From Candidatus Nomurabacteria bacterium (GTDB lineage: Bacteria > Patescibacteriota > Minisyncoccia > Phycocordibacterales > UBA918), in NCBI GenBank assembly GCA_023898565.1, contig CP060228.1:156170-220169 (forward strand): DNA of 64,000 bases, written 5' to 3'. The position numbers and the translations under genes are program-made. Shown here in pieces: positions 28,901 through 57,648 of the stretch (position 1 is the stretch's first letter; each line of letters starts with the position of its first letter). Below the pieces are notes generated by a model. The model was not told the DNA's origin, searched no databases, and saw only the letters and a program-made list of their open reading frames with translations.

Positions 28901-29047
28901 AGCGTGATGAGAGATACTTGTATGAATAAAGTTCGACCGCAAGACCTTCTCATTTTCAAAGAACAAACCAGGAGAAGATTTTTGCTTACAAATATTATGG
29001 CGCGTTATTAATCGTTACACAATTTTTTTTACAACCATTTTGGGGAT

Positions 29048-29085
29048 AAAAAAATTTCTTTAAAAATTTTTTAAAGAAATTTTTT
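29048..29085. promoter_or_regulatory. 38-bp AT-only near-perfect palindrome at the murB stop
   Basis: aaaaaatttcttttaaaaa | ttttttaaagaaattttta, with the dyad centre near 29066/29067. It lies between the murB 3' end and the lysine-rich gene. Confidence 0.3.
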
Positions 29086-30202: not shown

Positions 30203-30206
30203 AGTA

Positions 30207-32429
30207 CTAACAACCCTCCTGCGGATCGTTACCGTTCTCAATGTTGCCAATGAAACAGTTGGCAGTGGTCTCGAAATCTGGCAACGCCTCCTTTGCCTCT
30301 TCTAGCACAGTAATTGCCTGCTCCGGCTCACTATTTTGGTAGTAGAGATACGCGAGTGTGGCCCATGTCTGTGGCTCTTCAGCCCACTTCTGTGCACCAT
30401 CTGGCGCAGCCTGGGTGCGATACTCGAAGAGTTTAATTGCAATGTCGTACTGCCCAAACTGATTGGCGGCGCTGATGAGGAAGTCGCTCGCTGCCAAGCG
30501 ACGCATAATTGCGTCATCGGTGATTCGATCATCAGCACTTATCATAAGTAATCGCGCTTCATCTGGCTTTTGCGCATACAAAAGTCCCGCTGCGTAATAC
30601 TCACGTGCCTCAAGATTGCGCACGTCGAGTTCAAAGGCGGTCTTAAAGTATTCGAGCGCCTCGTCATTCTTTCCTTCTGAGAGCGCCACAAAACCTTGCT
30701 GCTCAATAATGGCCTGCTTTAGCGGTGAGTATTCACGCGCGAGTGCCATATGCTCAGCTGCTCTCTCAAGATTACCAATCGCGCGATAGTAACTTCCCAC
30801 AAACACATGCACGCGCGCGTCACCAGGCTTTTCCGACACTAAGCGACTCAGTTGTTCTTCAGTGTAGGACTGATACTCGGCCCGTACCGCTTCAGGAATC
30901 TTTGTGTCACGCACCACACTCATAGTTTGCTGAGCCAATTGTTCAGTAATCTCTTGATGAGCAAATGATTCGCGACCAATCGCCTGCTTAAAGTATCCGA
31001 GTCGCTCAGCCGGATCTGCCGCACGAAAAGCCAAAATAATATCACCTGCCGCATGCATACCCGGCACATGCGCAAAGTAAATCACCGCCACCACAAGCAC
31101 GGCCATGACCGGCGCAGCAAATTGTTCAATGATTGACTTGTCTACCTTCCACTCCGCTACAGCCTTTGGCACGAGTCCAACTCGTGAATTAATCAAACCA
31201 AGAATAATTGCAAAGAAGATGTAGCTGACAATATTGTCAAACACTACGAGATTGTGGGTGAAGTACCCGGCCAAGATACCAAGGAGCACCCCACGCTCCA
31301 TCGCATTAAACGCATGATCCTCCTTGTCGATAAGTGGACGAACAAGCAGGTACCACACGCACCACCCAAAGATGCTGAGATACACCACCAAACCAAGGAT
31401 GCCGCCGGTCACCAGCCAATCCATGAAAATGTTGTGCGATCGATCAAACCACTGCTCTTGACCGTACAGTCGTGGATCATAGTATTTGTTAAAGACGTAA
31501 TTGAAGTTGCTCTGGCCATACCCAAGGACTGGACTTTCTTTCACCCCTTCCCAAGCAGTACCCCAAATGATAGTTCTGATTTCCAAGTCGCCCAGAGAAA
31601 TATTGGCGATACGTGCCAAGTTTGGGCTATTCTGCACAAATGCGGTATCACGAGCCGCAATAAACGTACCAACGCCAAGTAGTAGCACCACAAATGCACC
31701 GATGGCATACTTGCGATACTGCACAAACTGCTTGCCGAAGAGACCAATGTACGCTGCCATCACCATGATGCCAACCGCCAAACCAATTGCCGTACCACGA
31801 GTACCGGTCTCGATGAGCACAAAGGTAAACATGGCAGCCAGCACGCCATAGAGCACTTTATGGAACGTGACACGCGTCTCTACAAAGAGCCAAAACGCTA
31901 CGAAAATATGGAAGAGCATGTACACCGCCATGTATGCGGCATTACCCAAACGGCTATCGATACGACTGCTGCCATCGACAAATCCACCATACTGCGCCAA
32001 GCCATAAAACGCTACTGCAAACGCCACGAAGAGTGAGGTGTTGAGCAGTCGCTGCCAATGCTCTTTCGTTTGCAGCACACTTCCTGCCACCAGCATGTAC
32101 AAGAATGTGTGCACAAGCGATACGTAGCCATCCATACGCTCGAAGTTGCTCCAGAAGCTTACATTGCGATTGAGACCCCACCAGTCGGCCGCAAACATCA
32201 CCACCAAAAGCGCACCAAAGCTCCAGACAATACCCGAAACTTTCGGCCGATACTTTACTTCATACAACGCGAGAATTGCCCACGCCGCGAATGTTACATC
32301 GACAATAATGCGAAACCAAAAATTCTTACCAGTAATGTACGGGAAGAAGTAATCATTCTCCACGTACAAGGTCAAAAACGGCACGGCAAAAATACCTGCG
32401 TAGACCAACCATTTCATTACGTCTTTCAT
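30207..32429 (-). CDS. O-antigen ligase (Wzy_C) family polytopic membrane protein with C-terminal TPR repeats
   Basis: It has about 12 TM helices with a Wzy_C-like core (GTRGTAIGLAVGIMVMAAYIGLFG). The soluble C-terminal portion has TPR-like repeats (LERAAEHMALAREYSP..., EALEYFKTAFELDVRN...). Confidence 0.65.
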   Translation of the reverse strand: MKDVMKWLVYAGIFAVPFLTLYVENDYFFPYITGKNFWFRIIVDVTFAAWAILALYEVKYRPKVSGIVWSFGALLVVMFAADWWGLNRNVSFWSNFERMDGYVSLVHTFLYMLVAGSVLQTKEHWQRLLNTSLFVAFAVAFYGLAQYGGFVDGSSRIDSRLGNAAYMAVYMLFHIFVAFWLFVETRVTFHKVLYGVLAAMFTFVLIETGTRGTAIGLAVGIMVMAAYIGLFGKQFVQYRKYAIGAFVVLLLGVGTFIAARDTAFVQNSPNLARIANISLGDLEIRTIIWGTAWEGVKESPVLGYGQSNFNYVFNKYYDPRLYGQEQWFDRSHNIFMDWLVTGGILGLVVYLSIFGWCVWYLLVRPLIDKEDHAFNAMERGVLLGILAGYFTHNLVVFDNIVSYIFFAIILGLINSRVGLVPKAVAEWKVDKSIIEQFAAPVMAVLVVAVIYFAHVPGMHAAGDIILAFRAADPAERLGYFKQAIGRESFAHQEITEQLAQQTMSVVRDTKIPEAVRAEYQSYTEEQLSRLVSEKPGDARVHVFVGSYYRAIGNLERAAEHMALAREYSPLKQAIIEQQGFVALSEGKNDEALEYFKTAFELDVRNLEAREYYAAGLLYAQKPDEARLLMISADDRITDDAIMRRLAASDFLISAANQFGQYDIAIKLFEYRTQAAPDGAQKWAEEPQTWATLAYLYYQNSEPEQAITVLEEAKEALPDFETTANCFIGNIENGNDPQEGC

Positions 32430-32934
32430 ATGGGTGAAACTATACCACGTACGCCCGATAAGCTCCGACTAGACGAGGCCGAGATTTGGAGGTGTAGGCT
32501 ATACACAGAAAGACTGGTGGGCGCTTCACTACAAGAGTACTTCAATTTTCATAGTCGCTTCGCTTCTTGAAAATTTAGTCGCACGACCCACCGGTTTTAT
32601 CCTCTACCGTTTCTCTCCCTTTCTTTTCCCTTCTTTCTCGCGCAGCTCTTTGTGTCCACTGTCACCATTTCTCAATTGCTCTTGCAAGACATAAACTGCA
32701 GTCACTTTGCACATTTTTACGAGAAACAACACATCAAACTTAAAGAGACATCTTTAAAGGTTCTACTTATGGTTAACAATGTACTTAATTACTAATTAGC
32801 TGCTAATATTAACCTATGAGAAAGATGCAAAATTTTGGTTACACTATTTTGTAACTAATTACAAAGTATAACTGTTAGACACTAGATGTGGTCATACAGA
32901 ATTTGTAACATCGAATTCATTCTTCAGGAAAATT

Positions 32935-34161
32935 ATGATTGAAAAACTCTTAAATTTGATAAGGTCTCATCGGCATCATCTCACAAACGGTGGATTTTTA
33001 GCCTACTCCAATCTAATCACCTCAATCACAAGCTTCGGCATTGTCTATATATTTGCTAATTTTATACCGCAAGAAACTTTCGGTACATATAAATATGTTC
33101 TGTCGATTGCAAGCATTCTGTCCATTTTTACACTTCAAGGAATGAATACTGCGGTCGCGCAGTCAGTGAGTCGCGGCTACGAAAACGCTCTCAAAGAAGG
33201 TATCCGCACCAAAATGTTATTCGGAAGCATTGGAACAGCTATTGGTTTGACTATAAGTGCATACTACTTTCTTCAAGAGAACACCATACTGGGAAGCTCT
33301 TTTTTAGTCACCGCTCTTGCAATACCTTTTTTTGGCACCTTTAACTTATACCGATCATACCTCAACGGGAAGAAAGAATATAAAGCAATCGCTCGCGAAA
33401 CTACATTGTACAATATAGCTTTTTTTCTATTGTTCTCTGCCGTACTGCTCCTAACCAATAACATTGTCGTTATACTACTTGGTTACTTTTTATTTTCCGT
33501 TCTGCTGCAACTATATATCTACCTTAAAATTTCACGAACACTCCGCAACACCCAACAAACAACTGACCCTGAGATTGTCGGGTACGCAAAACACCTATCG
33601 CTACTCAAAGGACTTACCGTTGCCTCTGGCTCCATTGGCACCATAGCTCTTTGGCAAATCCTGGGCCCTCTTGCCCTCCCTGTATACACACTGGCACTCG
33701 CACCGATTGAACAAGTCCGGCCAATGCTTCAGCTAACTGAAAACCTACTCATGCCAAACATGGCTCAAAAAACATGGAGAACCTACTCCATTGGATGGTT
33801 TTTTAAAAAATCTGCAACTTTTCTTCTCATAATCTTGCTTCTTGTGGCCATTTACATTGGCTTAGCGCCACTTATCTATGAGCTATTCTTCCCAAATTAT
33901 GCAGAATCTGTCTTTCTTTCACAGGTGTTTTCAGTAAGCCTTCTGTTCACAGGCATCAACATCATCCTGATGACTATAATGAAATCAAAAAAACAAATCC
34001 GTAATCTCTATCTAAGTAACGGCATTCTTATTTTCTTTGACCTTTTGACGATACCCGCTATCTATTTCTTCGGCATTTTAGGACTTGTAGTTAATGTACT
34101 ACTCGGAAAAGCTTTTCTGACACTCGTTAGTTTATTCTTGATATTCAAACGAACTCGCTAA
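32935..34161 (+). CDS. Wzx-like oligosaccharide flippase (MOP/polysaccharide biosynthesis protein family)
   Basis: At 408 aa it has about 12 TM helices and an N-terminus typical of Polysacc_synt proteins (GFLAYSNLITSITSFGIVYIFANFIPQETFGTYKYVLS). It is the first gene of the AT-rich island. Confidence 0.7.
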   Translation: MIEKLLNLIRSHRHHLTNGGFLAYSNLITSITSFGIVYIFANFIPQETFGTYKYVLSIASILSIFTLQGMNTAVAQSVSRGYENALKEGIRTKMLFGSIGTAIGLTISAYYFLQENTILGSSFLVTALAIPFFGTFNLYRSYLNGKKEYKAIARETTLYNIAFFLLFSAVLLLTNNIVVILLGYFLFSVLLQLYIYLKISRTLRNTQQTTDPEIVGYAKHLSLLKGLTVASGSIGTIALWQILGPLALPVYTLALAPIEQVRPMLQLTENLLMPNMAQKTWRTYSIGWFFKKSATFLLIILLLVAIYIGLAPLIYELFFPNYAESVFLSQVFSVSLLFTGINIILMTIMKSKKQIRNLYLSNGILIFFDLLTIPAIYFFGILGLVVNVLLGKAFLTLVSLFLIFKRTR

Positions 34162-34166
34162 AATTC

Positions 34167-34934
34167 CTATTGCATAGGTTTCGTGGCCACAGAGATTACT
34201 CGACGACCTTTGTTATTTTCACACTTATTAAAATACTTAGGCCAGATACTAAGATTGTAATGACTAGAAAGCTTTTTAAGTGTCCAGATTTTATTGTCAA
34301 TCAACTTATCATAAATCTTAAGTGGATGAAAACCCATTTTGTCCTGCCCCACCACTTCTTTAACATCAAAAAAGGGACTTAGTGTGTCGGTCAGCTTTTG
34401 TGCTGAAAAATGCTGGTAATGCTTCGGTCCAGGAGGCAGCGCATCTGATGGAACAGTTACAATAAACTCACCTCCCGGCTTCAACATCCTGCTCACCTCT
34501 TTTAAGAGAGACGGTATTTCATCAGGGATGATATGTTCTAACGTTTCAATCATGAAAATAACATCAAAATAGTTACTCTCGCACGTAACTTCATTAGCAA
34601 TATTTTTAGATGAAAATGTAACATTAGGCAAAAGTAGTTTTGCAAACGATATTGCCCTCTCTGAATAATCTATACCATAAAGACTGTGTTGATATCGATC
34701 TTCTAATTCTTTTAAGAAACGTGCATCACCACACCCTAAATCAAGAATTTTCAAAGTACGAGATTCTTTCATTAAAGATGACTGTCTTATTGCAAGGTCA
34801 AGATAACCAAAGTACAAGCGACCCGAAGAAGTGGAACTTTTCTTACACCAGTGATATGGATAACTGTACTCATCTTCCTGTATTTGCTGCTCTAATGTTA
34901 AATCTTTTTTTGTCATATTTACGAAGTTTAGCAT
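34167..34934 (-). CDS. Class I SAM-dependent methyltransferase
   Basis: It has motif I ILDLGCGDARFLKEL and post-I motifs (FDVIFMIETLEHI, LKPGG). Confidence 0.7.
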   Translation of the reverse strand: MLNFVNMTKKDLTLEQQIQEDEYSYPYHWCKKSSTSSGRLYFGYLDLAIRQSSLMKESRTLKILDLGCGDARFLKELEDRYQHSLYGIDYSERAISFAKLLLPNVTFSSKNIANEVTCESNYFDVIFMIETLEHIIPDEIPSLLKEVSRMLKPGGEFIVTVPSDALPPGPKHYQHFSAQKLTDTLSPFFDVKEVVGQDKMGFHPLKIYDKLIDNKIWTLKKLSSHYNLSIWPKYFNKCENNKGRRVISVATKPMQ

Positions 34935-34937
34935 AGC

Positions 34938-35864
34938 TTAAACACGCAATGCTTTTTTATCGGCAATAAATCTCATTATTTTTGAAGAAAAAGGAAGTAC
35001 TGAAAAAGCAAAAAACAAAAAATATCTACCTCTCCATGAGTACAGAAACGCCTGCCAGGCGTTCCAAAGAGCCCTTCTTTTATTGCCGCCAAGAAGCAGA
35101 CCAACAGCAGCACCATATGCATGACCCGCATACTTATCGCGTGCATCTGCAACCAGATACAGATACCTATGTTTTAATAGGAAAGCGTCTAGAACGGGAC
35201 CCCTTTCAATTGAGAGCGCAACGTTCATCTTTTTCCTCTGAATTGTAAGCGACATTGAGTCTGACTCTAAAAATACTTCACCACAGGTTTCATTAATGTA
35301 GGCAATGTTGCTTCCAGATTTTTCCAATATTTCAATATAAAACATGAAGTCAATTCCTCTGGAACGAAACCGCACGTCATCTATCAAATTTCTTTTAACT
35401 GCAATAATTTCAGCATCTTGAGGCCTTCGTCCCCCAACCCAATCATATTTTGTTAAAAGACCCGTTTGACAACGCGGGAGCATTTGCGGCTCTCCATCAT
35501 TACGATAGAAAACAGTACTTGCACAAACGACCCCAACCTCAAATTTTTGGAAACCACTTAACAAAACCTCGAGAGCATTAGGCAGTAACAAGTCATCACT
35601 GTCCCATATAATTAAAGCATCTCCAGTCGCATGTTCTATGCCCGTATTCCTAGCAACTGTCGCAGCTCCGTAGTTTCTATTTAATTTGATGTATTTAATG
35701 CGCTGATCTTTAAATCTACCCATCACTTTCTGAGTATCATCCGTAGAACCATCATCTACAACCAGAAGTTCAAATTTTTGATATTTTTGGCTAAGAACAC
35801 TTTCAACACACTTTTGCAAAACCTTAGACCGATTGTAAGTAGCAACAATGATACTAAATTTCAT
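34938..35864 (-). CDS. Family 2 glycosyltransferase
   Basis: FSIIVATYNRSKVLQKCVESVLSQKYQKFELLVVDDGSTDDT is the GT-A N-terminus, and a DxD-like IWDSDD is present. Confidence 0.8.
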   Translation of the reverse strand: MKFSIIVATYNRSKVLQKCVESVLSQKYQKFELLVVDDGSTDDTQKVMGRFKDQRIKYIKLNRNYGAATVARNTGIEHATGDALIIWDSDDLLLPNALEVLLSGFQKFEVGVVCASTVFYRNDGEPQMLPRCQTGLLTKYDWVGGRRPQDAEIIAVKRNLIDDVRFRSRGIDFMFYIEILEKSGSNIAYINETCGEVFLESDSMSLTIQRKKMNVALSIERGPVLDAFLLKHRYLYLVADARDKYAGHAYGAAVGLLLGGNKRRALWNAWQAFLYSWRGRYFLFFAFSVLPFSSKIMRFIADKKALRV

Positions 35865-36595
35865 AAGCCAATATTTTTCCGTACTGATTTTAGTACACTC
35901 AAGAATCTGGTATGTCTCTCATAGAGATACTCGTCAACGATATCGCCACCAAAACCCAACTTAAATCTGTTAATCCCAGATTTTGACTCGTCGGTCATAT
36001 TAATGTATGCCAAATCTACATATTCAAATCCTCTTGCCCCGCCAAAGCAGCAAACTTCGTATATCAGCCTCTTACTTATATAGCCAATATCTTTCTGAGA
36101 AACGTTTTCATCATGCTTTCTTGATGAAAAAATTGAAATGACCTTTAAAACAGGATTAGCATCAATAAGATAAATGCCGGAAACCACCTTCCCGTTACAG
36201 CAACCAAGCGCCCAAATACCGTTTGCATTCCTTCTCTTGAGAGACGGGCGATTGCTTTCTTTTTCAAATACATCATACAAAGAGTAACCTTCCTCAGAAA
36301 AACCCTTAACTAGCTTAAACGAATAATTTTCTTTGTATGTTTTACGAATTTCGTTTCTATAATTCTTTTTAAATGAGAGTAAAATATCCTCGTCCGTCTT
36401 ACTTGTCAAAAAAATTCTTGTTGTTTTTTTAACTCGACTCAGTTTGAAATCGTCCGGCAAATTCATCGGAAGATAGGAATATACCCTCGCAGAGTGAAAT
36501 GAGTATTTTCTTATAACATCTAAAACAACGTTTTCACTTTCGTAATAAATCTCACACACTCTTATTAAATTGTAAACTGTTTTTTTTCTAATCAT
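35861..36595 (-). CDS. Hypothetical protein, possibly a FemAB/GNAT-like (Acetyltransf_6-like) acyltransferase
   Basis: The C-terminal region ...LIYEVCCFGGARGFEYVDLAYI... weakly resembles the BioF2/FemAB-like acetyltransferase fold. The gene is embedded in the glycan cluster. Confidence 0.3.
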   Translation of the reverse strand: MIRKKTVYNLIRVCEIYYESENVVLDVIRKYSFHSARVYSYLPMNLPDDFKLSRVKKTTRIFLTSKTDEDILLSFKKNYRNEIRKTYKENYSFKLVKGFSEEGYSLYDVFEKESNRPSLKRRNANGIWALGCCNGKVVSGIYLIDANPVLKVISIFSSRKHDENVSQKDIGYISKRLIYEVCCFGGARGFEYVDLAYINMTDESKSGINRFKLGFGGDIVDEYLYERHTRFLSVLKSVRKNIGL

Positions 36596-37257
36596 TTCTT
36601 GTTACGACAAACGAAATAGGTCGTCTTACTGAACCACGGGAAGAATCTGTAAATCTTATCTTTCCAATTTAAATTATCTTCTTTTGCCAATGAAATCTTA
36701 TGAATAATTTCTATATCCCTGAAATATTTTTTAAGTTTAAAAAAATCTGACGGGCTTGTTCTGTATGTTTTAAGTTCATGATAATAATCAAATCTACCAG
36801 AAAAAAAACGGTGCAACTTTTTTAAATATAAACGATTATGAGAACTAAAAATAAATACACCGTCTCTTTTTAATACACGCGCAGCTTCTGACACGGCAGA
36901 ATAGATATCTGGTTCAACATAATCAATGCCGTGAAAAGGAAAAAAAATTGTGTCAAACGTATCATCTTCAAATGCTAGTCGACTAGCATCCATCTCAAAT
37001 ACTTTTACTTGATATCCTGCCATTCTTTTTTTTGACTGGTCAACCATTTCAGGAACAATGTCAACTCCTGTAACACAGAATCCTAAATCATGCAGTGGCT
37101 TCAGAGTTCTCCCTCCACCACACCCAAGCACTAACACATTATCTCTTTTAAAGTGTTTCTTTGCTAAAATTTCCTCATCGTGCCCCCAATAATTTACTTC
37201 ACCATATTGACTGGCTTGGTGTGCATATACTTTCTTATTCTGTTCAGATATGCTCAT
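36592..37257 (-). CDS. Class I SAM-dependent methyltransferase
   Basis: Motif I is NVLVLGCGGGRTLKPLHDLGFCVTGVDIVPEMV, and LKRDGVF is also present. Confidence 0.7.
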   Translation of the reverse strand: MSISEQNKKVYAHQASQYGEVNYWGHDEEILAKKHFKRDNVLVLGCGGGRTLKPLHDLGFCVTGVDIVPEMVDQSKKRMAGYQVKVFEMDASRLAFEDDTFDTIFFPFHGIDYVEPDIYSAVSEAARVLKRDGVFIFSSHNRLYLKKLHRFFSGRFDYYHELKTYRTSPSDFFKLKKYFRDIEIIHKISLAKEDNLNWKDKIYRFFPWFSKTTYFVCRNKK

Positions 37258-38018
37258 CTCTTTAGCAAAAATTTAAATTTTTCAAAAGTCGTCCACGAAT
37301 ATACTCCTTTTCTGTTCAAATGTAACATATTCGAATTATCAACAGTAACTCTACCCGGCCTTGTGCCAAAAGCAACATCATAGTATTTCGCAACTTCAGC
37401 CTCTATACGCTCGCTCCTTTTACCTTTCGGGTAGGCAAAATACCTACAGTCTATGTTCAACTTACTATTGAGAGTTTCCCTGCTTTCTTTAAGCTCTAAC
37501 GAAAGAAGATCTAGATTGGTCACGTCTGGTAAAACAAGGTGTGATTTGGTATGTGAGCCAATAGTTACAAGTGGGTGAGCGGCAAGATTTATTAAGTGAG
37601 ACCAGTTCAAGAGAGGCAACGCTCCATCCACATTGTTCATGCTTCGACCCACAAAATCGGTTGGTACAAAAATCGTTGCTGGTATTTCATATTTTTCAAG
37701 CACCGGTAAAGCATTTTCAATAAAATCAGAGTACGCGTCATCAAAAGTTATAGCGACTGTTTTTAGGGGGATTTTTCTCTTTTTTTTCAACATCACAACA
37801 AGTTCCGGCAGTGACACAACATTCCATTTTTTATTCTTAATATACTTAAGTTGTCTTTCAAAGACTTTCTTACTCACAGTGAACGAAAAACCATTATCTC
37901 CAACTGAATGATACGTAAGAACTACAGCTCCAGACTTAGTCGGCAATAGCGCTGCTGCCATAAACCAATAGATTGATTTCCCAATGTTTAGAATCGCCTG
38001 TAAAAGTTTTATATTCAT
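37254..38018 (-). CDS. Polysaccharide deacetylase (NodB homology, CE4)
   Basis: KTVAITFDDAYSDFIENALPVLEKYEIPATIFVPT is the NodB motif 1/2 region, followed by a His-containing motif (GSHTKSH). Confidence 0.75.
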   Translation of the reverse strand: MNIKLLQAILNIGKSIYWFMAAALLPTKSGAVVLTYHSVGDNGFSFTVSKKVFERQLKYIKNKKWNVVSLPELVVMLKKKRKIPLKTVAITFDDAYSDFIENALPVLEKYEIPATIFVPTDFVGRSMNNVDGALPLLNWSHLINLAAHPLVTIGSHTKSHLVLPDVTNLDLLSLELKESRETLNSKLNIDCRYFAYPKGKRSERIEAEVAKYYDVAFGTRPGRVTVDNSNMLHLNRKGVYSWTTFEKFKFLLKR

Positions 38019-38030
38019 AGTAATGACTAA

Positions 38031-39182: not shown

Positions 39183-39195
39183 ACGTAATTTTTAA

Positions 39196-40050: not shown

Positions 40051-40142
40051 ATTAACACTCTAAATTTATTTTTAGTTACAACCAAAAGAATCAGGTGGCT
40101 TTTTAAAAATAAGTCAACAAAAAGCTCTTTAATTTAAACTAA

Positions 40143-40859: not shown

Positions 40860-40880
40860 ATGTATAACAATATCATTCGC

Positions 40881-42532: not shown

Positions 42533-42582
42533 AATCTATACAACTTACCACGACTACATGAAGTAACAATCGTAGCTAAATG

Positions 42583-43467: not shown

Positions 43468-43506
43468 AATACCACACTCATCTGCTGATACAGCAGCCTA
43501 TTTTAC

Positions 43507-44844: not shown

Positions 44845-44863
44845 TACCAGCTAGTATAGCAGG

Positions 44864-46006
44864 CTATCTAGGGACACAAGAAGCGTAAGATTCCACTAAC
44901 TGCGTAATATAGGCTGCCTCATCCAGCGTCGTTTCGAGCGCCAGCTTGTGTCCTCGCACACCTTCAGTTGCTACGAGGCTATGATTTTTAAGATATACTT
45001 CCATTGCTTGTACATAGTGGTCACGGTCACCCACTAAAACCACCTGACCCGTTTCTCCACTCCTTACACACTCGCCGGCACAACCCACATCCGTAGTGAT
45101 AACTGGCATACCAGCTGCAGCTGCTTCAACCAGCACCATACCCCAACCTTCATGATTGGACGTAAGACAAAAGATGTCATGCGTTGCCATAATTGCCGCA
45201 ACGTTTTCAGTCCACGGGATAAACGTGACGCGGCTTTGTAAGCCAAGCGCAGTGATTTGCTTTTCAAGCACCTTCTGTAAAGAACCTCCACCAACAAGCG
45301 TAAGTGACGTATTTGGATATCGCACTGCCACTTGAGCAAACGCATCAATTAAAAACGGAAGATTCTTTTCCGGAGCAAACCGACCAACATATAAAAATGA
45401 GACTCTACCGCCCACTGCGTAATTTCTACTGACACCAACCGCCTTGAAAGCTGTGATATCTGAGAAAATCGGTAAGACGGTGATTTTTTCTTCCGATACA
45501 CCAAGCGATAGAAGTGAGCGCTTAATACGTGATGAAACGACGCGGATGCCGTCCGCGCGACGTACGGCCAAATGGCCGTACGTCGCGCGGACCCGCTGCA
45601 ATAAAGACACTTGATAACTCCGCGGATTAAATACGTCGCCATGAATTTGAATATGGTGGGTAGCGCAGTTGCCAAAGGCAACCGCGCTACCCACCACGCT
45701 CGTCTCAAACGGATCCTGACTCGATACCACCCAGTCACCACCCCGCTGCGCTAAAATCCGTCTACCAATTTTAAATGCTTGCCACATCATTCCTAATCGA
45801 GTACGAGTATTGGTGGCATACAAATGTAAATTACCATCCTGAACATACGCTGGGTATCCATCGTGTTTACGCGTAAATACAATAAGGTGATACTCACCCA
45901 TTGCTTCCGCATACGCCAACATACGCGCGCGCTCACGCGTGCCTGTCTCAAGCGCCCGCTTAGCGTAGCTGATTGCAATCAACCGCAACTTAGATTCGTC
46001 CTTCAT
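44864..46006 (-). CDS. Family 4 glycosyltransferase
   Basis: ...SRVTFIPWTENVAAIMATHDIFCLTSNHEGWGMVLVEAAAAGMPVITTDVGCAGECV is the GT4 EX7E region. Confidence 0.75.
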   Translation of the reverse strand: MKDESKLRLIAISYAKRALETGTRERARMLAYAEAMGEYHLIVFTRKHDGYPAYVQDGNLHLYATNTRTRLGMMWQAFKIGRRILAQRGGDWVVSSQDPFETSVVGSAVAFGNCATHHIQIHGDVFNPRSYQVSLLQRVRATYGHLAVRRADGIRVVSSRIKRSLLSLGVSEEKITVLPIFSDITAFKAVGVSRNYAVGGRVSFLYVGRFAPEKNLPFLIDAFAQVAVRYPNTSLTLVGGGSLQKVLEKQITALGLQSRVTFIPWTENVAAIMATHDIFCLTSNHEGWGMVLVEAAAAGMPVITTDVGCAGECVRSGETGQVVLVGDRDHYVQAMEVYLKNHSLVATEGVRGHKLALETTLDEAAYITQLVESYASCVPR

Positions 46007-47132
46007 AGATCGATGTAAGAAGTGAAACTATTTCTTTCACCACCTCTTCTTTAGCGAATTGTTTTGATCGACCACGAGCCGATTGCACTAATCGCTCGCG
46101 CGACTCAGGATGCCCAAGGACTCGCGCAATTGCTTCAGTCAGAGCATCAACATCGTTAAACTCCACTAAAAAGCCATTTACGCCATCAGTGATAAGCTCT
46201 GGATTGCCACCGGCATCAGTCGTCACAATTGGTGTACCAATATCCATTACCTCAATCAGCTGGTGAGAAAGTCCTTCATATGCAGTATTAAGTACAAAAA
46301 CATCAGCCGCTTTGATCGTAGCGCCGAGCGCGTCTTTGGTAATACTGCCAGTAAACCACACATGCTGTGCGAGCTTGAGCTGTGCTACCTTTTCTTCCAG
46401 TGCTGCGCGCTCGGCGCCATCACCCACAATAACCAACGCAATCTGCGGATATCGATCCTTTAGACGATGCACCACATCAATCAGTACCGAAAAGCCCTTC
46501 CAGGGCACCAGGCGCCCAGCCGAGACAATGGTTGGGTACGGGCACTCGAGCTCTTCGCGCAGTTCTTGTCTGGTTCCATGCACCTCGAGCGGATACAGTG
46601 CACTATAAATCACTTTTATCTTCTTCGAATCAATTCCCCACTGCACCACTACGCGCTTGAGATACTCACTCGGCACCACTACGCGCACGGCTTGTGACAC
46701 CACAAACGTCTGCACCTTCGCAAGCTGCCGCACCATAAATGGCCACGATGCCCGCTTCGTCAAAAAGACATCTAGCGTATCAGTCACTCCAAACCGCATC
46801 CGACCCTGCTCCCAAGCATAATCACCGCCCAGTCGGACCAAGAACGGCTTGTGACGCACTCTTGCTACCAAGTACGCAGCTAAGCCAACGCTGGTTGGAT
46901 CTAGCGCATAAATCATATCGGCACCTTTGCTTTCCCGCCAAAGCTTCCAAGCATACACCAGGTGTCGAAGCACTTTTGGATACTGTCTCACCCAGCCAAA
47001 CGGTACGGTGGTAAGCTCAAATCCATGTCCAGGCAGCTCCGTCTCAAGCATGGCAGCGTAGGTCGCTGGTCCGCCAATTTCCGGTGGATATAATCCTGTT
47101 GCAATCGTTACTTTCATATTCATTCTCATCAT
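45990..47132 (-). CDS. Family 4 glycosyltransferase
   Basis: MKVTIATGLYPPEIGGPATYAAMLE is the GT4 N-terminus, and EGLSHQLIEVMDIGTPIVTTDAGGNPELI is the C-terminal motif. It overlaps the downstream GT by 17 nt. Confidence 0.75.
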   Translation of the reverse strand: MMRMNMKVTIATGLYPPEIGGPATYAAMLETELPGHGFELTTVPFGWVRQYPKVLRHLVYAWKLWRESKGADMIYALDPTSVGLAAYLVARVRHKPFLVRLGGDYAWEQGRMRFGVTDTLDVFLTKRASWPFMVRQLAKVQTFVVSQAVRVVVPSEYLKRVVVQWGIDSKKIKVIYSALYPLEVHGTRQELREELECPYPTIVSAGRLVPWKGFSVLIDVVHRLKDRYPQIALVIVGDGAERAALEEKVAQLKLAQHVWFTGSITKDALGATIKAADVFVLNTAYEGLSHQLIEVMDIGTPIVTTDAGGNPELITDGVNGFLVEFNDVDALTEAIARVLGHPESRERLVQSARGRSKQFAKEEVVKEIVSLLTSIYEGRI

Positions 47133-47171
47133 ACCAATATCAGTCTCTTGGCAGAAGTAGACAGACTGCTT

Positions 47172-48194
47172 CTATAAGAGCCCGATGAGCTTCCGGGCTA
47201 ACTTTCGCGAATCGTGACGAATCAAGCTACGCTTAAGCACATCGCCTCGGCTTTTTTGTACCACCTCATCCGCCAGCAAATCAGCTGGAATAATTCGACA
47301 ATTCTCTGTCTCACAATTAAAGACGACCGGGTACTCGCCATCAGCAGCGTAGCGTGCCAGCAAATCAGCTGGCAGTGGTGCAGTATTAACCACCACGGCA
47401 TCTGGATGTCGTCCAATGTACCTGGTTATTTCTGACAAATGTTCAGCTAATCCCATACCTGCTGTCTGCCCCACCTTCGTCATGAGGTTTGAGACGTACA
47501 CTAATTTCGCTGTGGCGTGCCGAACCGCTTCGGACACTCCGTCCACGACACAATTTGCCAGTACGCTGGTATACAAATCGCCTGGACCGATTACAATCAA
47601 ATCAGCCTGCAAGAGAGCCGCTTCGGCCGCTTCGCTAATGGTGGCGTGGGGAGTGACCTCTAGCGCGATGATTTTGTGGCGCGCACGATCTTCGTCTGGC
47701 TCATCAATGCCGTGCTCTCCCACCAACTGTACGCCATCATCGTAGGTCGCCATAAGATTAACTTTTTCAGTAGTGACCGGAATCACGGCGCCACGCACAC
47801 CAAGGAGGCGACCGGCAGCGCGAATGGCAGCTTCCTCGCCGCCGAGAATATCAGTGAGCGCGACTAGTAGTAAATTGCCAAAGTTGTGCCCCGAGAGGCC
47901 GTGCCCTTTTTCAAACCGGTACAAGAACAGCTGGCGCACCAACTCTTCATATTCATCATCAGCACTCCCAAGGGCTGCAAGTGCCATACGCACATCACCG
48001 ACAGGCAGATAACCAAACTCATCACGCAGCCGCCCCGTCGAACCGCCTGAGTCAGCCATCGTTACAATCGCCGCGAGATCAACGTGCTTCTGATACTTTC
48101 GCAAACCTTTTAGTACGGTATGGGTTCCCGTTCCACCGCCAATAACAACCACTTTCTGTTTCTGCATCAGTGGACTATAACAGTAAATATTCAC
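47172..48194 (-). CDS. YvcK/CofD-like (UPF0052) gluconeogenesis-factor family protein
   Basis: KVVVIGGGTGTHTVLKGLRKY...AIVTMADSGGSTGRLRDEFGYLPVGDVRMALAAL is the hallmark YvcK N-terminus. The likely start is MQKQK at about 48167. Confidence 0.75.
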   Translation of the reverse strand: MNIYCYSPLMQKQKVVVIGGGTGTHTVLKGLRKYQKHVDLAAIVTMADSGGSTGRLRDEFGYLPVGDVRMALAALGSADDEYEELVRQLFLYRFEKGHGLSGHNFGNLLLVALTDILGGEEAAIRAAGRLLGVRGAVIPVTTEKVNLMATYDDGVQLVGEHGIDEPDEDRARHKIIALEVTPHATISEAAEAALLQADLIVIGPGDLYTSVLANCVVDGVSEAVRHATAKLVYVSNLMTKVGQTAGMGLAEHLSEITRYIGRHPDAVVVNTAPLPADLLARYAADGEYPVVFNCETENCRIIPADLLADEVVQKSRGDVLKRSLIRHDSRKLARKLIGLL

Positions 48195-48256
48195 CCCGTG
48201 TCACTTTACGTTTACAATAAATGTTTCTGAATAATACGTTATAATCAATCGATACC

Positions 48257-48793
48257 ATGAAAGTACTTATTATTACTCCACTTTTTCCTCCCGACACCGG
48301 TGCACCGGCGCCGTACTCTAAGCTACTGGCCAAACGACTCGCCAAACACGACGTAACCGTTCTTGCTCACGGCACCCTTCCCGAAACGGTACCGCACGCC
48401 ACTATCATTTCTATTCCTAAAAATTCTCTCAAGACTATCCTCATCGCAAAAACCCTGCGCCAACTATTCCTAGTCAAGACTGACCTTATCGTAGTGAATA
48501 ACGGACCAGCTGTTGAACTACCAATGCTCATCTATTCTTTTTTTGCAAAAACACCTTTCATTTTGATTGAGAGCGACCCAATTTCTCTCTCTCATAGCCA
48601 GACAGGACTGCGCGCATTGGTACACCGGAATCTACGAAAGCGTGCCCGCGGTGTATTACAACTGCCAACACACGAATCGGACTACCTGCCACTTGAAATA
48701 CTTCCTTTTAGGAAAATCGACACAGCGTGCCAAGCGGCTCAAGATGCCTGGTGGAATGAACACTGTAAACAAATTGAATCGTATGGGTCATAA
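48257..48793 (+). CDS. Short protein matching only the N-terminal (acceptor) domain of GT4 glycosyltransferases
   Basis: MKVLIITPLFPPDTGAPAPYSKLLAKRLAKHDVTVLAHG matches Glyco_trans_4-like N-termini. At 178 aa it has no donor-binding C-domain. It may be a split-GT partner or a remnant. Confidence 0.4.
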   Translation: MKVLIITPLFPPDTGAPAPYSKLLAKRLAKHDVTVLAHGTLPETVPHATIISIPKNSLKTILIAKTLRQLFLVKTDLIVVNNGPAVELPMLIYSFFAKTPFILIESDPISLSHSQTGLRALVHRNLRKRARGVLQLPTHESDYLPLEILPFRKIDTACQAAQDAWWNEHCKQIESYGS

Positions 48794-49883
48794 CACCGAA
48801 CAAACTTGGCGAGAATATGTCAGTGTGGAACTCGCGGTATTAGAACCGATTTTAGCTCGGCGTGGCATTGCATTGGATGATAATCAACCCCACATTAGCG
48901 GTGAACGCTTTCTCATGAGAAACATTACCACCACGAGCGGCACCAAATTAATCCTTATTGGTACTACACACACAGGAACACCTGTGGTGATAAAAGCAAC
49001 GCGAGACTATGCCGGCAAAGCTGAACTGCAGCATGAGCGAAAATGTCGCGAGCTGCTACATAAAATTAATTTTGCATATGAGACCTTCTCATCACCGGAA
49101 GAACTTGCCTTGTTTACTGAACACAACTTCTTAATATCAATACAGCGTTTTATAGAGCAGTCTTCAAGTTTTACCGAACGATCACTGCCAGAACAGTTCT
49201 CGTACGCACTAACCGGACTAAAAAACCAAGAAAGCGTGCACGCCACGACGCGCAATCACTATCAGCAAATCACCAGAATCTTTGGTGTGCGAACCAGCCA
49301 AAGCTACCAAGACTTATTTGATGGCTTCTCAAAATTTCTCGAACACAATTGCAGTTCAAAAGAAGTACGAACTGTTGTTGCTCGCGCGCACACACACTTT
49401 TGCAACAATCTTATCCGCGTCCAACAGTATTGCGGCTTTCTGACACACACTGATTTTGTTCCACACAACTTCCGTATTGCCGACGACAAACTATACCTGC
49501 TCGACTTCTCCTCACTCACGTTTGGCAACAAACACGAAGGCTGGGCACGTTTTTTAAATTTTATGACACTCTATAACCCTGAACTTGAAGCGCTGCTCAT
49601 ACGCTACGTTGAAGACAATCGAGCTCCAGAAGAACGCGAATCACTACAACTCTTGCGCATCTATCGACTCGCTGAAATCATCACGTACTATGTTCGCACG
49701 CTCGGAAGTAGCACGGGCAGTCTACACGATCTCAACACCGCTCGTATTCACTTCTGGCGTGATGTGCTCGAAGCAGAACTGGAAAATACGCGAGTTGATC
49801 ACACCATCGTAGCCGCGTATAAAAAACTTCGCGACACACTTCGTAGCGATGAAGAAAAAATGAGACAGAAAAACTTGCACTAG
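48783..49883 (+). CDS. Aminoglycoside/choline-kinase-like phosphotransferase (APH/ChoK fold)
   Basis: The track ORF was trimmed to MGHNTEQTWREY..., with MPGG at 48744 as an alternative start. The Brenner-type catalytic motif HTDFVPHNFRIADDKLYLLDFSSLTFG (HxDxxxxN...D) is present. It overlaps the upstream ORF. Confidence 0.55.
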   Translation: MGHNTEQTWREYVSVELAVLEPILARRGIALDDNQPHISGERFLMRNITTTSGTKLILIGTTHTGTPVVIKATRDYAGKAELQHERKCRELLHKINFAYETFSSPEELALFTEHNFLISIQRFIEQSSSFTERSLPEQFSYALTGLKNQESVHATTRNHYQQITRIFGVRTSQSYQDLFDGFSKFLEHNCSSKEVRTVVARAHTHFCNNLIRVQQYCGFLTHTDFVPHNFRIADDKLYLLDFSSLTFGNKHEGWARFLNFMTLYNPELEALLIRYVEDNRAPEERESLQLLRIYRLAEIITYYVRTLGSSTGSLHDLNTARIHFWRDVLEAELENTRVDHTIVAAYKKLRDTLRSDEEKMRQKNLH

Positions 49884-49919
49884 AAATGAGCGCGGCCCTT
49901 CGGGCCGCGCTCATTTCTA
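49883..49919. terminator. Bidirectional GC-rich hairpin terminator with UUCG loop between convergent genes
   Basis: agaaatgagcgcggccc-ttcg-gggccgcgctcatttct is a 17-bp perfect stem. The kinase TAG stop (49881-49883) and the HD-gene stop (complement of 49917-49919) lie in its two arms. Confidence 0.6.
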
Positions 49920-50462
49920 TTCCTCAAGTCCTTTCAACTGTTCAATTAATCTCCCGTATCGCTCCAAGAGTGGATGTTCCCAGTCTTTCTTTAGTTCAGT
50001 ATAGAGCAATTCTTCAAACCACAGCTTCTTCGCTTTGCCGCGATTAAACACATTCCAAACCGCGCGACCTTTGTGCTCGTAATCGTTTAAAATACTCTCC
50101 GCATTGTGAATCTTATCCGCAATTGAAACCGCGCGCACTCCTTCACCGGCCGCCACCACTCCCGCGACATACCGCTCTTTCCGCGCCTCCCACGACAAGT
50201 CTTTATCTTCACTCACTCCGTCCACCATCACTGCAACATCTTCACCAAGTTTCGCCGCCAACTCTTCCCGCGTCACTGACGTATCTTCAAGCACATCATG
50301 TGTAAAGCCAGCTGCTACCACAGCCTCAGAAAAACCGTACTCTTTAAGGAGCACGCCCACCATCACTGGATGTGTGATGTACGGCGAACCATCACTCTTT
50401 CGCACTTGGTCTTTGTGGGCGGCTGTGGCGAGCCGGAGCGCCTTCTCGGTTAGTGTCATCAT
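49917..50462 (-). CDS. HD-domain small alarmone hydrolase-like protein (RelA/SpoT N-terminal hydrolase fold)
   Basis: ...YITHPVMVGVLLKEYGFSEAVVAAGFTHDVLEDTSVTREELAAKLGEDVAVMVDGVSED matches the (p)ppGpp hydrolase HD domain (HP...HD.vEDT..t.eel...FG..Va.lVdGvtk). It is 181 aa and has no synthetase domain. Confidence 0.6.
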   Translation of the reverse strand: MMTLTEKALRLATAAHKDQVRKSDGSPYITHPVMVGVLLKEYGFSEAVVAAGFTHDVLEDTSVTREELAAKLGEDVAVMVDGVSEDKDLSWEARKERYVAGVVAAGEGVRAVSIADKIHNAESILNDYEHKGRAVWNVFNRGKAKKLWFEELLYTELKKDWEHPLLERYGRLIEQLKGLEE

Positions 50463-50463
50463 A

Positions 50464-51657
50464 CTAATCTACTACTTTGCTAAAGACTTCCTCACGCATC
50501 TTCTTCGCCACAGCATCCCAGTGATACTCCGTCTCCATGAGCTTTCGAGCATTGGCGGTCACTTCAGCCACTTTTTCTGGGTGCGTCAAAATATCCTCAA
50601 CCGCTTTGGCAATTTGCTCTGGCGCATCCGGCTCTACCACCCAAGCGGTTGGTGCTTTGTTTGGATTGTGCGCTTCGTCAAACACAAAATCTTTTAACCC
50701 ACCGACATTTGAAGCAATCACCGGCAAGCGGCCAGCCATAGCTGAAAGTACTGAGTTACCCAGCCCTTCCGAACGACTCGGGTGTACAAAAATATCGCTC
50801 ACAATCGTGTTGCGATACTTTGGCACATCGTCGCGCTCAAGCTGTCCTAAAAATTTCACTCGCTCGCTTACACCTAGCTCTGCAGCCAAAGCCTTGAGTA
50901 TGGCTTCATCAGGTCCGCCGCCGCCAATCAAAAAATGTACATTCTCTGGCAAAAGCGTCAGCGCTCGCACCACTGCATCAATTCCCTTCTGATACACCAG
51001 TCGCGCTGCAATAAAAAGGTACACGTCTCCCTCTTTCTTTCCGAGTGATTCTTTAACCGTTTCAAGCTCGGCATCACCGTAGTACTGGTCGAAGTTTTTT
51101 GGATTAGCACCATTACGCACCAGTACCACCTCACCAGTGTAGCCACGCTTTTCTGGCCACGTTGCCAGATATTCTGAGATAGCCTGAATAACTGCAGCAT
51201 TTTTAATGCCACTATCAATCAGCGGAAGCGCTGGCTTAATAAACCAGCGCTCAAAGACCTTATCGTATGGGTCACCATCTTGGAACGTCACCACATGTGA
51301 CACCTTCACTCCAATCCACCGCGCAAGCGTGAGCGGCATAGTCATGTAGGTCATCATCGCCCACATACCGGCAAGTGGCGATTCTGTGTGTAGCGCCCGT
51401 GCCGTACGTGCAGCCAAAAACACAAACAGAATTTTCGAAAGATACGCTCCACCAAACCCAACCCGGTGCACGGTCACATTTCCCATCACTTCAGTTCGCG
51501 GCGCAGTTGTATCAAAGAGTAGCGTAATGACGTGAAACTCAATATCTTCTGGACTAATCCTCTCGGTGATTTCTTTAATTGCCGCCTCCGCGCCGGAGAC
51601 ATGACATGGATAGTAGGCCAAGGAAAACACTGCTATTCGCTTTTTCATATAACTCAC
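50464..51657 (-). CDS. Family 4 glycosyltransferase
   Basis: It has a GT-B fold and the C-terminal segment ...FVHPSRSEGLGNSVLSAMAGRLPVIASNVGGLKDFV. Confidence 0.75.
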   Translation of the reverse strand: MSYMKKRIAVFSLAYYPCHVSGAEAAIKEITERISPEDIEFHVITLLFDTTAPRTEVMGNVTVHRVGFGGAYLSKILFVFLAARTARALHTESPLAGMWAMMTYMTMPLTLARWIGVKVSHVVTFQDGDPYDKVFERWFIKPALPLIDSGIKNAAVIQAISEYLATWPEKRGYTGEVVLVRNGANPKNFDQYYGDAELETVKESLGKKEGDVYLFIAARLVYQKGIDAVVRALTLLPENVHFLIGGGGPDEAILKALAAELGVSERVKFLGQLERDDVPKYRNTIVSDIFVHPSRSEGLGNSVLSAMAGRLPVIASNVGGLKDFVFDEAHNPNKAPTAWVVEPDAPEQIAKAVEDILTHPEKVAEVTANARKLMETEYHWDAVAKKMREEVFSKVVD

Positions 51658-51696
51658 TTTATCATAAAAGTAGCCCTCAACTTCGGACCATTTTTG

Positions 51697-52572
51697 CTAC
51701 AAATTAGACTGTGTATACTCAGACAACTCGTACTGCTGTTGCCAACCAAGAGCTTCAAGCTTACTCGTATCATCTGCCATACTAGAACGTGATGACTTTG
51801 TTGCGGGAGCATATTGCTTCTCCAGCCCAAACATATCGGCCAGTTCATTCAGTGAATACACTTCTTTGGCGCAAATTGCGTACTCATCGCGCATGCCCTT
51901 TTCGGCAATGAGAAGCAGCGCACTAACCGTGTCTGACACATGTGTAAACGCGCGCGTTTGTTCGCCGGTACCATTGATGGTGCATGGCTCGTGTTTTATG
52001 GCGCACTGCCTGAATGTTTCTACCACCGTACCATACGCACCAGTGTACTGCCCCGCACGTTCACGTGGTCCGTAGACATTATAAAAATACGCAATCGAAT
52101 ACTCGAGATTGTACCAGCGACCGTAGTTGTGTACCAGCTCTGAGTTCATTGCCTTAGAAAAACTATACGGCGCTCGATTGCGCGCTTCTATCTCACTGCT
52201 CCGCTCATCTTGCGTATGTTTGGTCGAGCTGCCAGCGTACACCAACTTGCACTGCTTCTCGCGCCAGAATTCAAGCACAGCCATTGTGCCAGCAGTATTT
52301 AAATCCCACACCAAGTGCGGCTCCGCCAGACTCGGCGCAATGCGAGAGTATTCACCAAGATGAAAAATCACCGTTGGTGTTTCAGAAATATGGAGCGCAA
52401 TATCCTTAGTGTGACCTTCGCGATACTCAACTCCAGGCACATGATTGTCTTTGGTACCTGAAAAGTAATTATCGAGTGAAATGACCGCATACCCTTCCTG
52501 CACCAACCGCTCACAAAGGTGCGACCCGACAAATCCGGCTCCGCCGGTCACGACTGCTAATTGCTGTTCCAT
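51697..52572 (-). CDS. NAD-dependent epimerase/dehydratase (extended SDR; UDP-sugar epimerase or decarboxylase-like)
   Basis: VVTGGAGFVGSHLCERLVQEGYAVISLDNYFSG is the Rossmann motif, and the YxxxK region is present. The protein is 291 aa. Confidence 0.8.
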   Translation of the reverse strand: MEQQLAVVTGGAGFVGSHLCERLVQEGYAVISLDNYFSGTKDNHVPGVEYREGHTKDIALHISETPTVIFHLGEYSRIAPSLAEPHLVWDLNTAGTMAVLEFWREKQCKLVYAGSSTKHTQDERSSEIEARNRAPYSFSKAMNSELVHNYGRWYNLEYSIAYFYNVYGPRERAGQYTGAYGTVVETFRQCAIKHEPCTINGTGEQTRAFTHVSDTVSALLLIAEKGMRDEYAICAKEVYSLNELADMFGLEKQYAPATKSSRSSMADDTSKLEALGWQQQYELSEYTQSNL

Positions 52573-52613
52573 AGTGGTTAGATAGTACCAAAAATACGTC
52601 TGTGATACGAGCG

Positions 52614-53999: not shown

Positions 54000-54005
54000 A
54001 GTTAC

Positions 54006-56066: not shown

Positions 56067-56083
56067 TTGTATTTAGTATACCA

Positions 56084-57616: not shown

Positions 57617-57648
57617 GAACCAACCTTATTTTGACACTAGCTCACACT

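Follow-up and report, generated by a model that had tools for sequence, protein, structure and literature searches.

Gene content of the locus

The 64,000-nucleotide stretch of Candidatus Nomurabacteria DNA analyzed here (the window; GenBank assembly GCA_023898565.1, contig CP060228.1, positions 156,170 to 220,169) contains, between its positions 30207 and 52572, a region of about 22 kb in which 7 glycosyltransferase (GT) and 5 methyltransferase (MT) genes are found among 22 open reading frames (ORFs), clearly forming a functional cluster. At one end of this region lies the gene for a large membrane protein with a Wzy_C domain and a tetratricopeptide repeat (TPR) domain, hereafter the transferase. 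The most informative feature of the locus is the combination of a conserved core with an island of glycan genes that is swapped between strains, a feature that an earlier reading of the DNA, made from its letters alone (the sequence-only reading), did not mention. That reading described a contiguous glycosylation region with at least eight GTs (one GT2 and seven GT4 genes) and six MTs; the cluster itself stands, although it is contiguous only in a loose sense, its run being broken by a YvcK gene, an HD-domain gene and a kinase-like gene, and Pfam backs seven intact GTs (the GT2 and six GT4) and five of the MTs. The gene families at the locus are, taken individually, all known and ordinary. Families were assigned to the ORFs between 29 and 59 kb by Pfam and NCBIfam scans, and the statements below that a gene is absent cover the 64-kb window and the flanks of the relatives named with them. 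The genes of the window lie mostly on the minus strand, and its GC content is about 48%.

The transferase gene (30207-32429, minus strand) encodes 740 amino acids (aa) with Pfam Wzy_C and TPR matches, and murB (29084-30250, minus strand; UDP-N-acetylenolpyruvoylglucosamine reductase, Pfam FAD_binding_4 and MurB_C) lies directly downstream of it, as the sequence-only reading had recognized. On its other side, a divergent intergenic stretch of 505 bp in the ORF map (32430-32934) separates the transferase gene from the plus-strand gene of a polytopic Wzx-type flippase (32935-34161; Polysacc_synt, PF01943, 8.1e-15; 8 hydrophobic segments) and forms the left border of the variable island. Wzx and the transferase are the only two polytopic proteins in the locus. 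With wzx, the gene that defines the type of pathway is present, and the locus combines it with several cytoplasmic GTs and sugar-modifying enzymes, as is expected of Wzx-dependent assembly.

The island, rightly noticed earlier as AT-rich, is a strain-variable glycan cassette of about 10 kb that runs from wzx to GT4b (32500-42550, as delimited by base composition and strain comparisons); its GC content is 0.33-0.42 (32-43 kb) vs. 0.46-0.52 elsewhere in the window, and neither an integration site nor a regulatory RNA was found there by tRNA and Rfam scans. Beyond wzx its genes are all on the minus strand: S-adenosylmethionine (SAM) methyltransferase 1 (34167-34934; Methyltransf_25/11), a soluble GT2 (34938-35864; Glycos_transf_2, 2.4e-36, with only sub-threshold NCBIfam matches, TuaG and PglI for example), a 244-aa protein that is possibly a FemAB/GNAT-like transferase (35861-36595; faint FemAB match, E 0.019), SAM methyltransferase 2 (36592-37257; Methyltransf_25/11), a polysaccharide de-N-acetylase of family CE4 (37254-38018; Polysacc_deac_1, 8.9e-21; PgaB/IcaB-like below cutoff), GT4a (38031-39182; Glyco_trans_1_4/Glycos_transf_1), a 284-aa NDP-sugar-dehydrogenase-like protein without the C-terminal domain (39196-40050; UDPG_MGDP_dh_N and central domain only), an FkbM-family methyltransferase (40143-40859; Methyltransf_21, 2.4e-13; TIGR01444 above cutoff), SAM methyltransferase 4 (40881-41528; Methyltransf_23/11) and GT4b (41525-42532; Glycos_transf_1, 1.2e-23), inside which the right border of the island falls. 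The 244-aa protein, which has a 50% identical orthologue within the cassette of one related locus (L001), might add an amino acid or an acyl group to the glycan.

The conserved flank opens with SAM methyltransferase 5 (42583-43467, minus strand; Methyltransf_11, 2.5e-18; orthologues 71% identical in L004 and 68% in L006), followed on the same strand by GT4c, a conserved core GT (43507-44844; Glycos_transf_1), GT4d (44864-46006; Glycos_transf_1, 1.5e-35), GT4e (45990-47132; Glycos_transf_1, 1.2e-42) and a YvcK/CofD-related UDP-GlcNAc-binding protein (47172-48194; CofD, 5.9e-82; TIGR01826, 282 bits, above cutoff), which had been correctly named and is probably a housekeeping neighbor. Two plus-strand genes come next, a 178-aa ORF (48257-48793) and the gene of a 379-aa kinase-like protein (~48744-49883; APH/CotS-like, with faint APH and CotS matches and an HxDxxxxN...DFS motif seen in the translation). 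The 178-aa ORF had been taken for an N-terminal fragment of a GT4; the ORF does exist, and it has no Pfam match, its only likeness being to a GT4 N-terminus (38% identity over 55 aa to that of GT4e). It overlaps the start of the kinase-like gene, both have separate gene calls in the near-identical L084 and L085, and it could be either a decayed GT4 or a functional small protein. The region ends, on the minus strand, with a SpoT-hydrolase-like HD-domain protein (49917-50462; HD_4, 2.8e-16) that is probably unrelated to the glycan pathway, GT4f (50464-51657; Glycos_transf_1, 5.5e-36) and an NDP-sugar epimerase/dehydratase of the short-chain dehydrogenase/reductase (SDR) type (51697-52572; Epimerase, 9.4e-42), the latter again as previously described. 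The flippase, the deacetylase, the short dehydrogenase-like gene, the kinase-like gene and the HD gene had all gone unmentioned.

Cassette exchange beside a conserved transferase

The AT-rich cassette (32.5-42.5 kb) is replaced wholesale between near-identical strains. Two of the related Patescibacteria loci (which carry labels such as L001 and L002, and 80 of which make up the synteny set) encode an identical transferase (P0003) and are 99.96% identical in DNA over a 13.6-kb stretch that reaches the 3' end of wzx, and unrelated from there on; the sole cassette gene that L001 and L002 have in common is the short dehydrogenase-like gene (L001 4238-5083; L002 956-1801; 99.6% DNA identity), whose 281-aa products are 69% identical to the window copy. 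The opposite border is seen in L084, which matches the window at 99.1% identity over 42233-59460 and diverges from ~42.2-42.5 kb on, inside GT4b; its GT4b orthologue is 51% identical overall, the first ~120 aa being visibly better matched and the rest poor. These borders coincide with the low-GC tract. Identity between the window and L003 is 81% over 26898-32501 and 94.7% over 32762-34751 (wzx and SAM methyltransferase 1), which points to lateral exchange of cassette pieces as well. The fixed part comprises the transferase and murB on one side and SAM methyltransferase 5, GT4c-e, YvcK, GT4f and the SDR protein on the other, and the exchange of what lies between implies strain-to-strain differences in the outer portion of the glycan. 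In L001, the segment homologous to the island of the window (2573-7089) carries GT4 sequences broken into stretches of 123, 176 and 173 aa, and methyltransferase sequences broken likewise (87 and 136 aa); these split genes could be due either to decay of the cassette or to indel errors of the assembly.

The transferase, on the other hand, is very widespread. It has more than 2400 homologues, the best 120 of which are 61-99% identical to it, and those that are named among the matches listed all belong to Kaiserbacteria, Nomurabacteria, Paceibacteria or Parcubacteria; an exact copy of the window's transferase was not on record. Of the species-representative genomes scanned, at least 533 have a relative, all of them, among the matches listed, Patescibacteria. 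To our knowledge, Patescibacteria are monoderm and lack lipopolysaccharide (LPS). Since the close relatives of the Wzy_C-TPR enzyme all fall within this group, it is not a lipid-A-core ligase, a candidate that we rejected on the host lineage and on the absence of waa and lpx genes from the 64-kb window; a finding that the sequence-only reading had named as fatal to its own proposal, such a ligase in an LPS-bearing organism, does not apply here.

Across the 80 related loci, gene order is kept as transferase-murB-secA-holin-like-obg-gatB-unknown-HTH-giant protein. The start of murB lies no more than 600 bp downstream of the transferase gene in 47 of the 61 loci with enough flank; it is probably co-transcribed with the transferase, and it is a conserved partner of that gene rather than a member of the glycan cassette. 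In 30 of the 33 loci compared, the transferase surpasses MurB in conservation; identity averages 53% for the former and 42% for the latter, 72% for secA, 64% for obg and 63% for gatB, and the median for Wzx is 29%. Upstream neighbors were counted, in the 53 loci that offered 8 kb or more on that side, by tblastn with window proteins as queries, which underestimates divergent GTs and MTs: Wzx lies within 10 kb of the transferase in 33 of these loci and some glycan-related match is present upstream in 48, while 28 have no GT near the transferase that the GTs of the window could detect. GT4c (30-48% identity) stands directly upstream of the Wzy_C-TPR gene in L017, L025, L026, L027, L029, L033, L056, L064 and L066, with YvcK adjoining it in L017, L026, L027 and L029; in L017, L026 and L027 the cassette is found beyond YvcK/GT4c and not beside the transferase. 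Because GT4c and YvcK thus lie directly upstream of the transferase in more distant genomes, the lineage of the window seems to have received the island as an insertion that separated conserved partners. Some relatives carry upstream GtrA-domain fusions (~515 aa, 12 transmembrane (TM) helices) and AT3-SGNH O-acetyltransferases (L025 4751-6310; L026 2760-4307; L044 3728-5731 and 7868-9877), genes of the kinds by which enterobacteria modify their O-antigens; their presence points to additional levels at which the surface glycans of Paceibacteria vary.

An AlphaFold (AF2) model of the transferase, built from 42 homologues (predicted local distance difference test, pLDDT, 84), consists of 13 membrane helices followed, from about residue 470, by an all-helical TPR domain. 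Its fold is of the polytopic Wzy_C/GT-C(B) type, with a Foldseek TM-score of 0.63 to WaaL, and WaaL was also the sole match (E 8.6e-7) in a search of the PDB with a profile of the TM domain; the full-length sequence returned TPR matches only, and the TPR domain resembles those of penicillin-binding protein (PBP) activators such as LpoP, among many other TPRs. In hhalign, the alignment to E. coli WaaL was weak but sensible (E 0.008, with TRGT aligned to TQTRAT), and no meaningful alignment was obtained to WzyE (E 0.6) or WbbH (E 0.25), both from E. coli. R211, R285 and H332 align with the Arg/Arg/His of WaaL (R215, R288 and H338 in E. coli); together with R273 they are invariant in all 29 orthologues examined (35-88% identity), and invariant motifs occur in all six outer loops. 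Helix count and the positive-inside pattern, taken from the model and simple hydropathy, would place the N-terminus inside and both the 259-333 loop and the TPR domain outside. The pair C725/C740 (coding end at 30207-30254) is jointly present in 15 of the 29 orthologues and jointly absent in the rest. The members that keep it are the closer half of the family and those that lost it the distant half, a pattern suggesting that, in one clade, the tip of the TPR domain carries an external loop closed by a disulfide. As described here, with a 13-TM WaaL fold, an external TPR domain, core status in Paceibacteria and a probable operon with murB, this is a subfamily that had not been characterized before.

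Acceptor of the glycan and alternative roles

The transferase is the only candidate for a final transfer of the glycan outside the membrane. We tentatively read the region, at rather less than even confidence, as a locus for lipid-carrier-dependent cell-surface glycosylation in which the glycan is transferred, in the manner of PglL and of WsfB/WsaB from Gram-positive S-layers, to Ser, Thr or Tyr of secreted surface proteins. To judge from their families, the soluble GT2 and GT4 enzymes would assemble an oligosaccharide on the cytoplasmic side of the membrane, with undecaprenyl phosphate as its carrier, and SAM methyltransferases, the de-N-acetylase and the sugar-nucleotide enzymes would decorate it; the Wzx-type protein would then flip it to the outer face, where the 13-TM WaaL-fold enzyme would move it en bloc onto an acceptor outside the membrane. 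In the modeled topology, Arg211, Arg273, Arg285 and His332 are predicted on outer loops, with the TPR domain on the same side as the catalytic loop. The acceptors would be Ser, Thr or Tyr residues of S-layer proteins, pilins or giant adhesin-like proteins. That one identical transferase serves unrelated cassettes, and is conserved like a housekeeping enzyme, argues for a ligase that is promiscuous for its donor, as WaaL and PglL are, and constant in its acceptor, and against a polymerase specific for one repeat unit; a protein is the likeliest such acceptor given the lack of LPS and the external, protein-binding TPR domain. A wider version of this idea, in which the transferase is the general protein O-oligosaccharyltransferase of Paceibacteria, a core enzyme co-transcribed with murB, and the swapped outer glycan on S-layer, pilin and giant adhesin-like proteins sets the specificity of host attachment and of phages, is in our estimate doubtful.

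The sequence-only reading proposed specific acceptors, namely two neighboring giant proteins rich in Ser and Thr. Both proteins look secreted, each with an N-terminal signal-like helix, and both are indeed Ser/Thr-rich: one has 1070 aa (11633-14845, minus strand; S+T 23.8%), the other 2064 aa and a beta-helix (14860-21054, minus strand; S+T 22.4%; NosD/Beta_helix), as compared with 12.3% in the other proteins of the window. They are not neighbors, however; they lie 9-19 kb away, beyond HTH240, unk370, gatB, obg, the holin-like gene, secA and murB. That they are syntenic with the transferase is true, and general collinearity explains it: because the housekeeping block (secA-obg-gatB) is collinear across the class, the linkage carries little functional weight, and we set it aside as functional evidence. 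Thus, a glycan-assembly locus was rightly recognized, its tie to the giant proteins reduces to membership in a long housekeeping synteny block, and the giant proteins are hypothetical acceptors.

Several observations count against protein glycosylation by the transferase. None of the tests identified the acceptor. The giant proteins, at least 9 kb off behind housekeeping genes, have few mucin-like tracts, the exceptions being the tail of the 2064-aa protein, which is acidic and rich in T/E/A/P, and, in the protein encoded at 7333-9015, a TTTPNPP linker, and the Bacteroidetes sequon D[ST][AILVMT] is not enriched in them (7 and 9 observed vs. 8.3 and 12.4 expected). The direct neighbors of the transferase gene are murB and wzx, with no pilin or other acceptor gene adjacent. 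The PglL-like character that had been proposed for the transferase extends to the architecture, Wzy_C with a C-terminal TPR, and not to the PglL_A motif PF15864, which defines PglL and sets it apart from WaaL (PMC3643930): neither this motif nor Wzy_C_2 was matched at E<=10 in Pfam, and we rejected membership in PglL on the former. No NCBIfam model of an oligosaccharyltransferase (OTase), ligase or polymerase matches either, the best hit being IctB with 40 bits against a cutoff of 366, and the best match in both structure and sequence is WaaL, not any solved OTase. A lipid-linked start is assumed, since neither the window nor the flanks of L001-L003 contain an initiating phosphoglycosyltransferase (Bac_transf, MraY/WecA type); its gene may lie in another part of the genome, like wecA in E. 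coli. Finally, wzx is also common to L001 and L002, so that the reducing end of the glycan could be conserved and the case against a polymerase loses some of its weight; the tight linkage to murB and the LpoP-like TPR would also suit a role directed at the cell wall.

Such a role is the best placed of the alternatives, though we consider it unlikely. The transferase would be a ligase that joins the glycan to peptidoglycan or to a glycolipid of the membrane, the product being a wall polysaccharide or a lipoglycan; as the monoderm counterpart of WaaL it would take on the job of the LCP enzymes of Firmicutes, its TPR domain docking to the wall-synthesis machinery. Its closest solved relative is a ligase onto a lipid acceptor, an invariant non-protein acceptor would suit its high conservation, and the window holds many wall genes (Mur ligases, a YkuD and S11 fusion, SLT) in addition to the murB immediately downstream in most loci. 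Yet the murB linkage may be mere conservation of gene order in a reduced genome, as the block runs on through secA-obg-gatB, and WaaL binds its lipid acceptor without any extra soluble domain. TMTC and OGT are TPR-fused and have protein substrates; like them, the other known fusions of TPRs to membrane glycosyltransferases (WsfB, PglL) go with protein substrates. In favor of a wall-directed ligase, WaaL is reported to accept lipid II as donor when mutated (PMC4296511).

Less probable again is that the transferase is a polymerase of the Wzy type that serves a Wzx/Wzy-dependent pathway for a capsule or exopolysaccharide, a polymer that it would not itself attach. The Wzy_C-family proteins of Gram-positive capsule loci are mostly polymerases, the gene is paired divergently with wzx, and it encodes the sole Wzy-like protein of the locus: no second one occurs in the window or in the cassettes of three relatives, and ten other polytopic proteins in the flanks of relatives include no Wzy, all being AT3 or AT3-SGNH acetyltransferases, GtrA fusions, PMT_2 or Wzx. 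As L001 and L002 share wzx, the polymerized linkage could be conserved between them. Against a polymerase, the identical enzyme flanks unrelated sets of GTs, and it is more conserved across genera than MurB, far from the ~29% of Wzx, whereas a Wzy normally varies with its repeat unit; its profile matches WaaL and not WzyE or WbbH, its WaaL-type histidine is invariant, and the window ORFs scanned against Pfam include neither a chain-length regulator (Wzz/PCP) nor a tyrosine kinase.

That the transferase has some other core envelope role, as may the uncharacterized cyanobacterial IctB-type Wzy_C proteins, with no functional tie to a cassette that merely entered at a permissive site, is very improbable: its best (and far sub-cutoff) NCBIfam match to IctB, the 28 of 53 loci without a GT nearby and the displaced cassettes of L017, L026 and L027 would fit, but Wzx and other glycan-related matches accompany it in most loci (33 and 48 of the 53), GT4c recurs as its direct neighbor, the tblastn screen misses divergent GTs, and the flanks of relatives hold the glycan-modifying AT3-SGNH proteins, GtrA fusions and PMT_2.

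Several further genes near the locus deserve description. Directly downstream of the giant-protein genes, four secreted or membrane-anchored proteins are encoded (7333-11530, minus strand), one of them with fn3 and two of them paralogues of 234 and 254 aa (34% identical), so that together with the giants they make up a surface-protein block of ~14 kb. Just upstream of the giants lies a pair of paralogues (21057-21779 and 21863-22975, minus strand) with an HTH_17-like N-terminus and one predicted TM helix each (around residue 100 in the 240-aa protein and residue 326 in the 370-aa one); both genes are kept at this site across many Paceibacteria loci and may encode membrane-anchored regulators of the giant-protein gene. 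The holin-like gene (25641-25991, minus strand) encodes a 116-aa, 4-TM Phage_holin_4_2 protein that is kept between secA and obg in most related loci and is evidently a core gene product, not a prophage holin. Beyond the other end of the region, a VirD4/TrwB-like coupling ATPase (54006-56066, minus strand) is flanked by a secreted LTD and PKD protein (52614-53999) and by the YkuD and S11 fusion (56084-57616), which joins an L,D-transpeptidase to a D-Ala-D-Ala carboxypeptidase; no other type IV secretion genes were recognized among the window ORFs scanned against Pfam. L066 likewise has the VirD4-LTD/PKD pair near its transferase gene, with 71% identity between the VirD4 homologues.

Patescibacteria, which are ultra-small, spend their lives attached to other microbial cells, and it is at their surface that the choice of host and the range of infecting phages are settled. 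Almost nothing is known of their surface glycans, and literature searches for protein glycosylation or O-antigen-ligase homologues in Patescibacteria found nothing relevant in the library searched; the locus gives a concrete picture, that of a nearly universal WaaL-like transferase beside a cassette exchanged in the manner of an O-antigen locus. Should the acceptor be protein, en bloc O-glycosylation would extend to the candidate phyla radiation (CPR) as the first protein-glycosylation system described there, and the enzyme would be a compact, very donor-tolerant transferase for glyco-engineering; should it be the wall or a lipid, the locus would show how a monoderm can anchor wall glycans by a route other than LCP enzymes. 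The transferase is a good marker and experimental target under either reading of the acceptor.

Comparison with known systems

By description, the closest architecture appears to be that of WsfB. A Wzy_C domain with C-terminal TPR has been reported for the O-oligosaccharyltransferases WsfB and PglL, and WsaB has an adjacent TPR protein, WsaA (PMC2943079). WsfB of Paenibacillus alvei and WsaB with WsaA of Geobacillus stearothermophilus are predicted S-layer protein O-oligosaccharyltransferases; the likeness, drawn on described architecture only, extends to a monoderm host, to a polytopic Wzy_C enzyme with its TPR at the C-terminus (WsfB) or in a partner (WsaA), and to a position beside a glycosyltransferase cluster with methyltransferase activity. 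Those systems, however, export through an ABC transporter (Wzm/Wzt) and have an initiating transferase (WsaP/WsfP) and an S-layer gene nearby, whereas a Wzx flippase is encoded here and neither an initiating transferase nor a recognizable S-layer gene is found in the window.

The Gram-negative PglL/PilO(TfpO)/PglS enzymes are likewise Wzy_C proteins with conserved Arg/Arg/His, residues that are common to WaaL and PglL (PMC3643930); a C-terminal TPR is reported for PglL (PMC2943079), and the relaxed donor specificity of PglL would be matched by what the cassette swaps imply. Unlike that family, the transferase lacks a detectable PF15864, has no pilin or other acceptor gene beside it and belongs to a monoderm host; it is also far more conserved across genera, the PglL members being of low homology (PMC3643930). 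With WaaL (7TPG/7TPJ from Cupriavidus metallidurans, and the E. coli enzyme) it shares the only significant PDB profile match, aligned catalytic residues and, by family, a flipped lipid-linked glycan as substrate, but identity is only 16%, and the extra 13th helix, the 280-aa external TPR domain, the operon with murB and a lineage without LPS, lipid A-core or waa genes set it apart.

The proteobacterial O-antigen and capsule loci provide the likeness for the cassette: they too are AT-rich, with sharp recombination borders in conserved flanks and whole-cassette replacement between near-identical strains. They differ in having Wzz/PCP, outer-membrane export and a lipid A-core acceptor, none of which is seen here, while the conserved flanks of the present locus encode further GT4s. 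In the logic of the locus as a whole, the closest described counterpart would be the protein O-glycosylation cluster of Tannerella forsythia and other Bacteroidetes, which in Tannerella spans ~27 kb and contains Wzx, 5 Gtf, 3 Mtf and sugar-nucleotide genes, with a conserved core and a strain- or species-specific part (PMC6120980). The present locus resembles it in both content and this division into core and variable part; the Tannerella host is diderm and its OTase is unidentified in PMC6120980, whereas here a candidate transferase stands at the edge of the locus. Taken together, the logic of this locus matches that of known en bloc glycosylation combined with O-antigen-like variation of the cassette.

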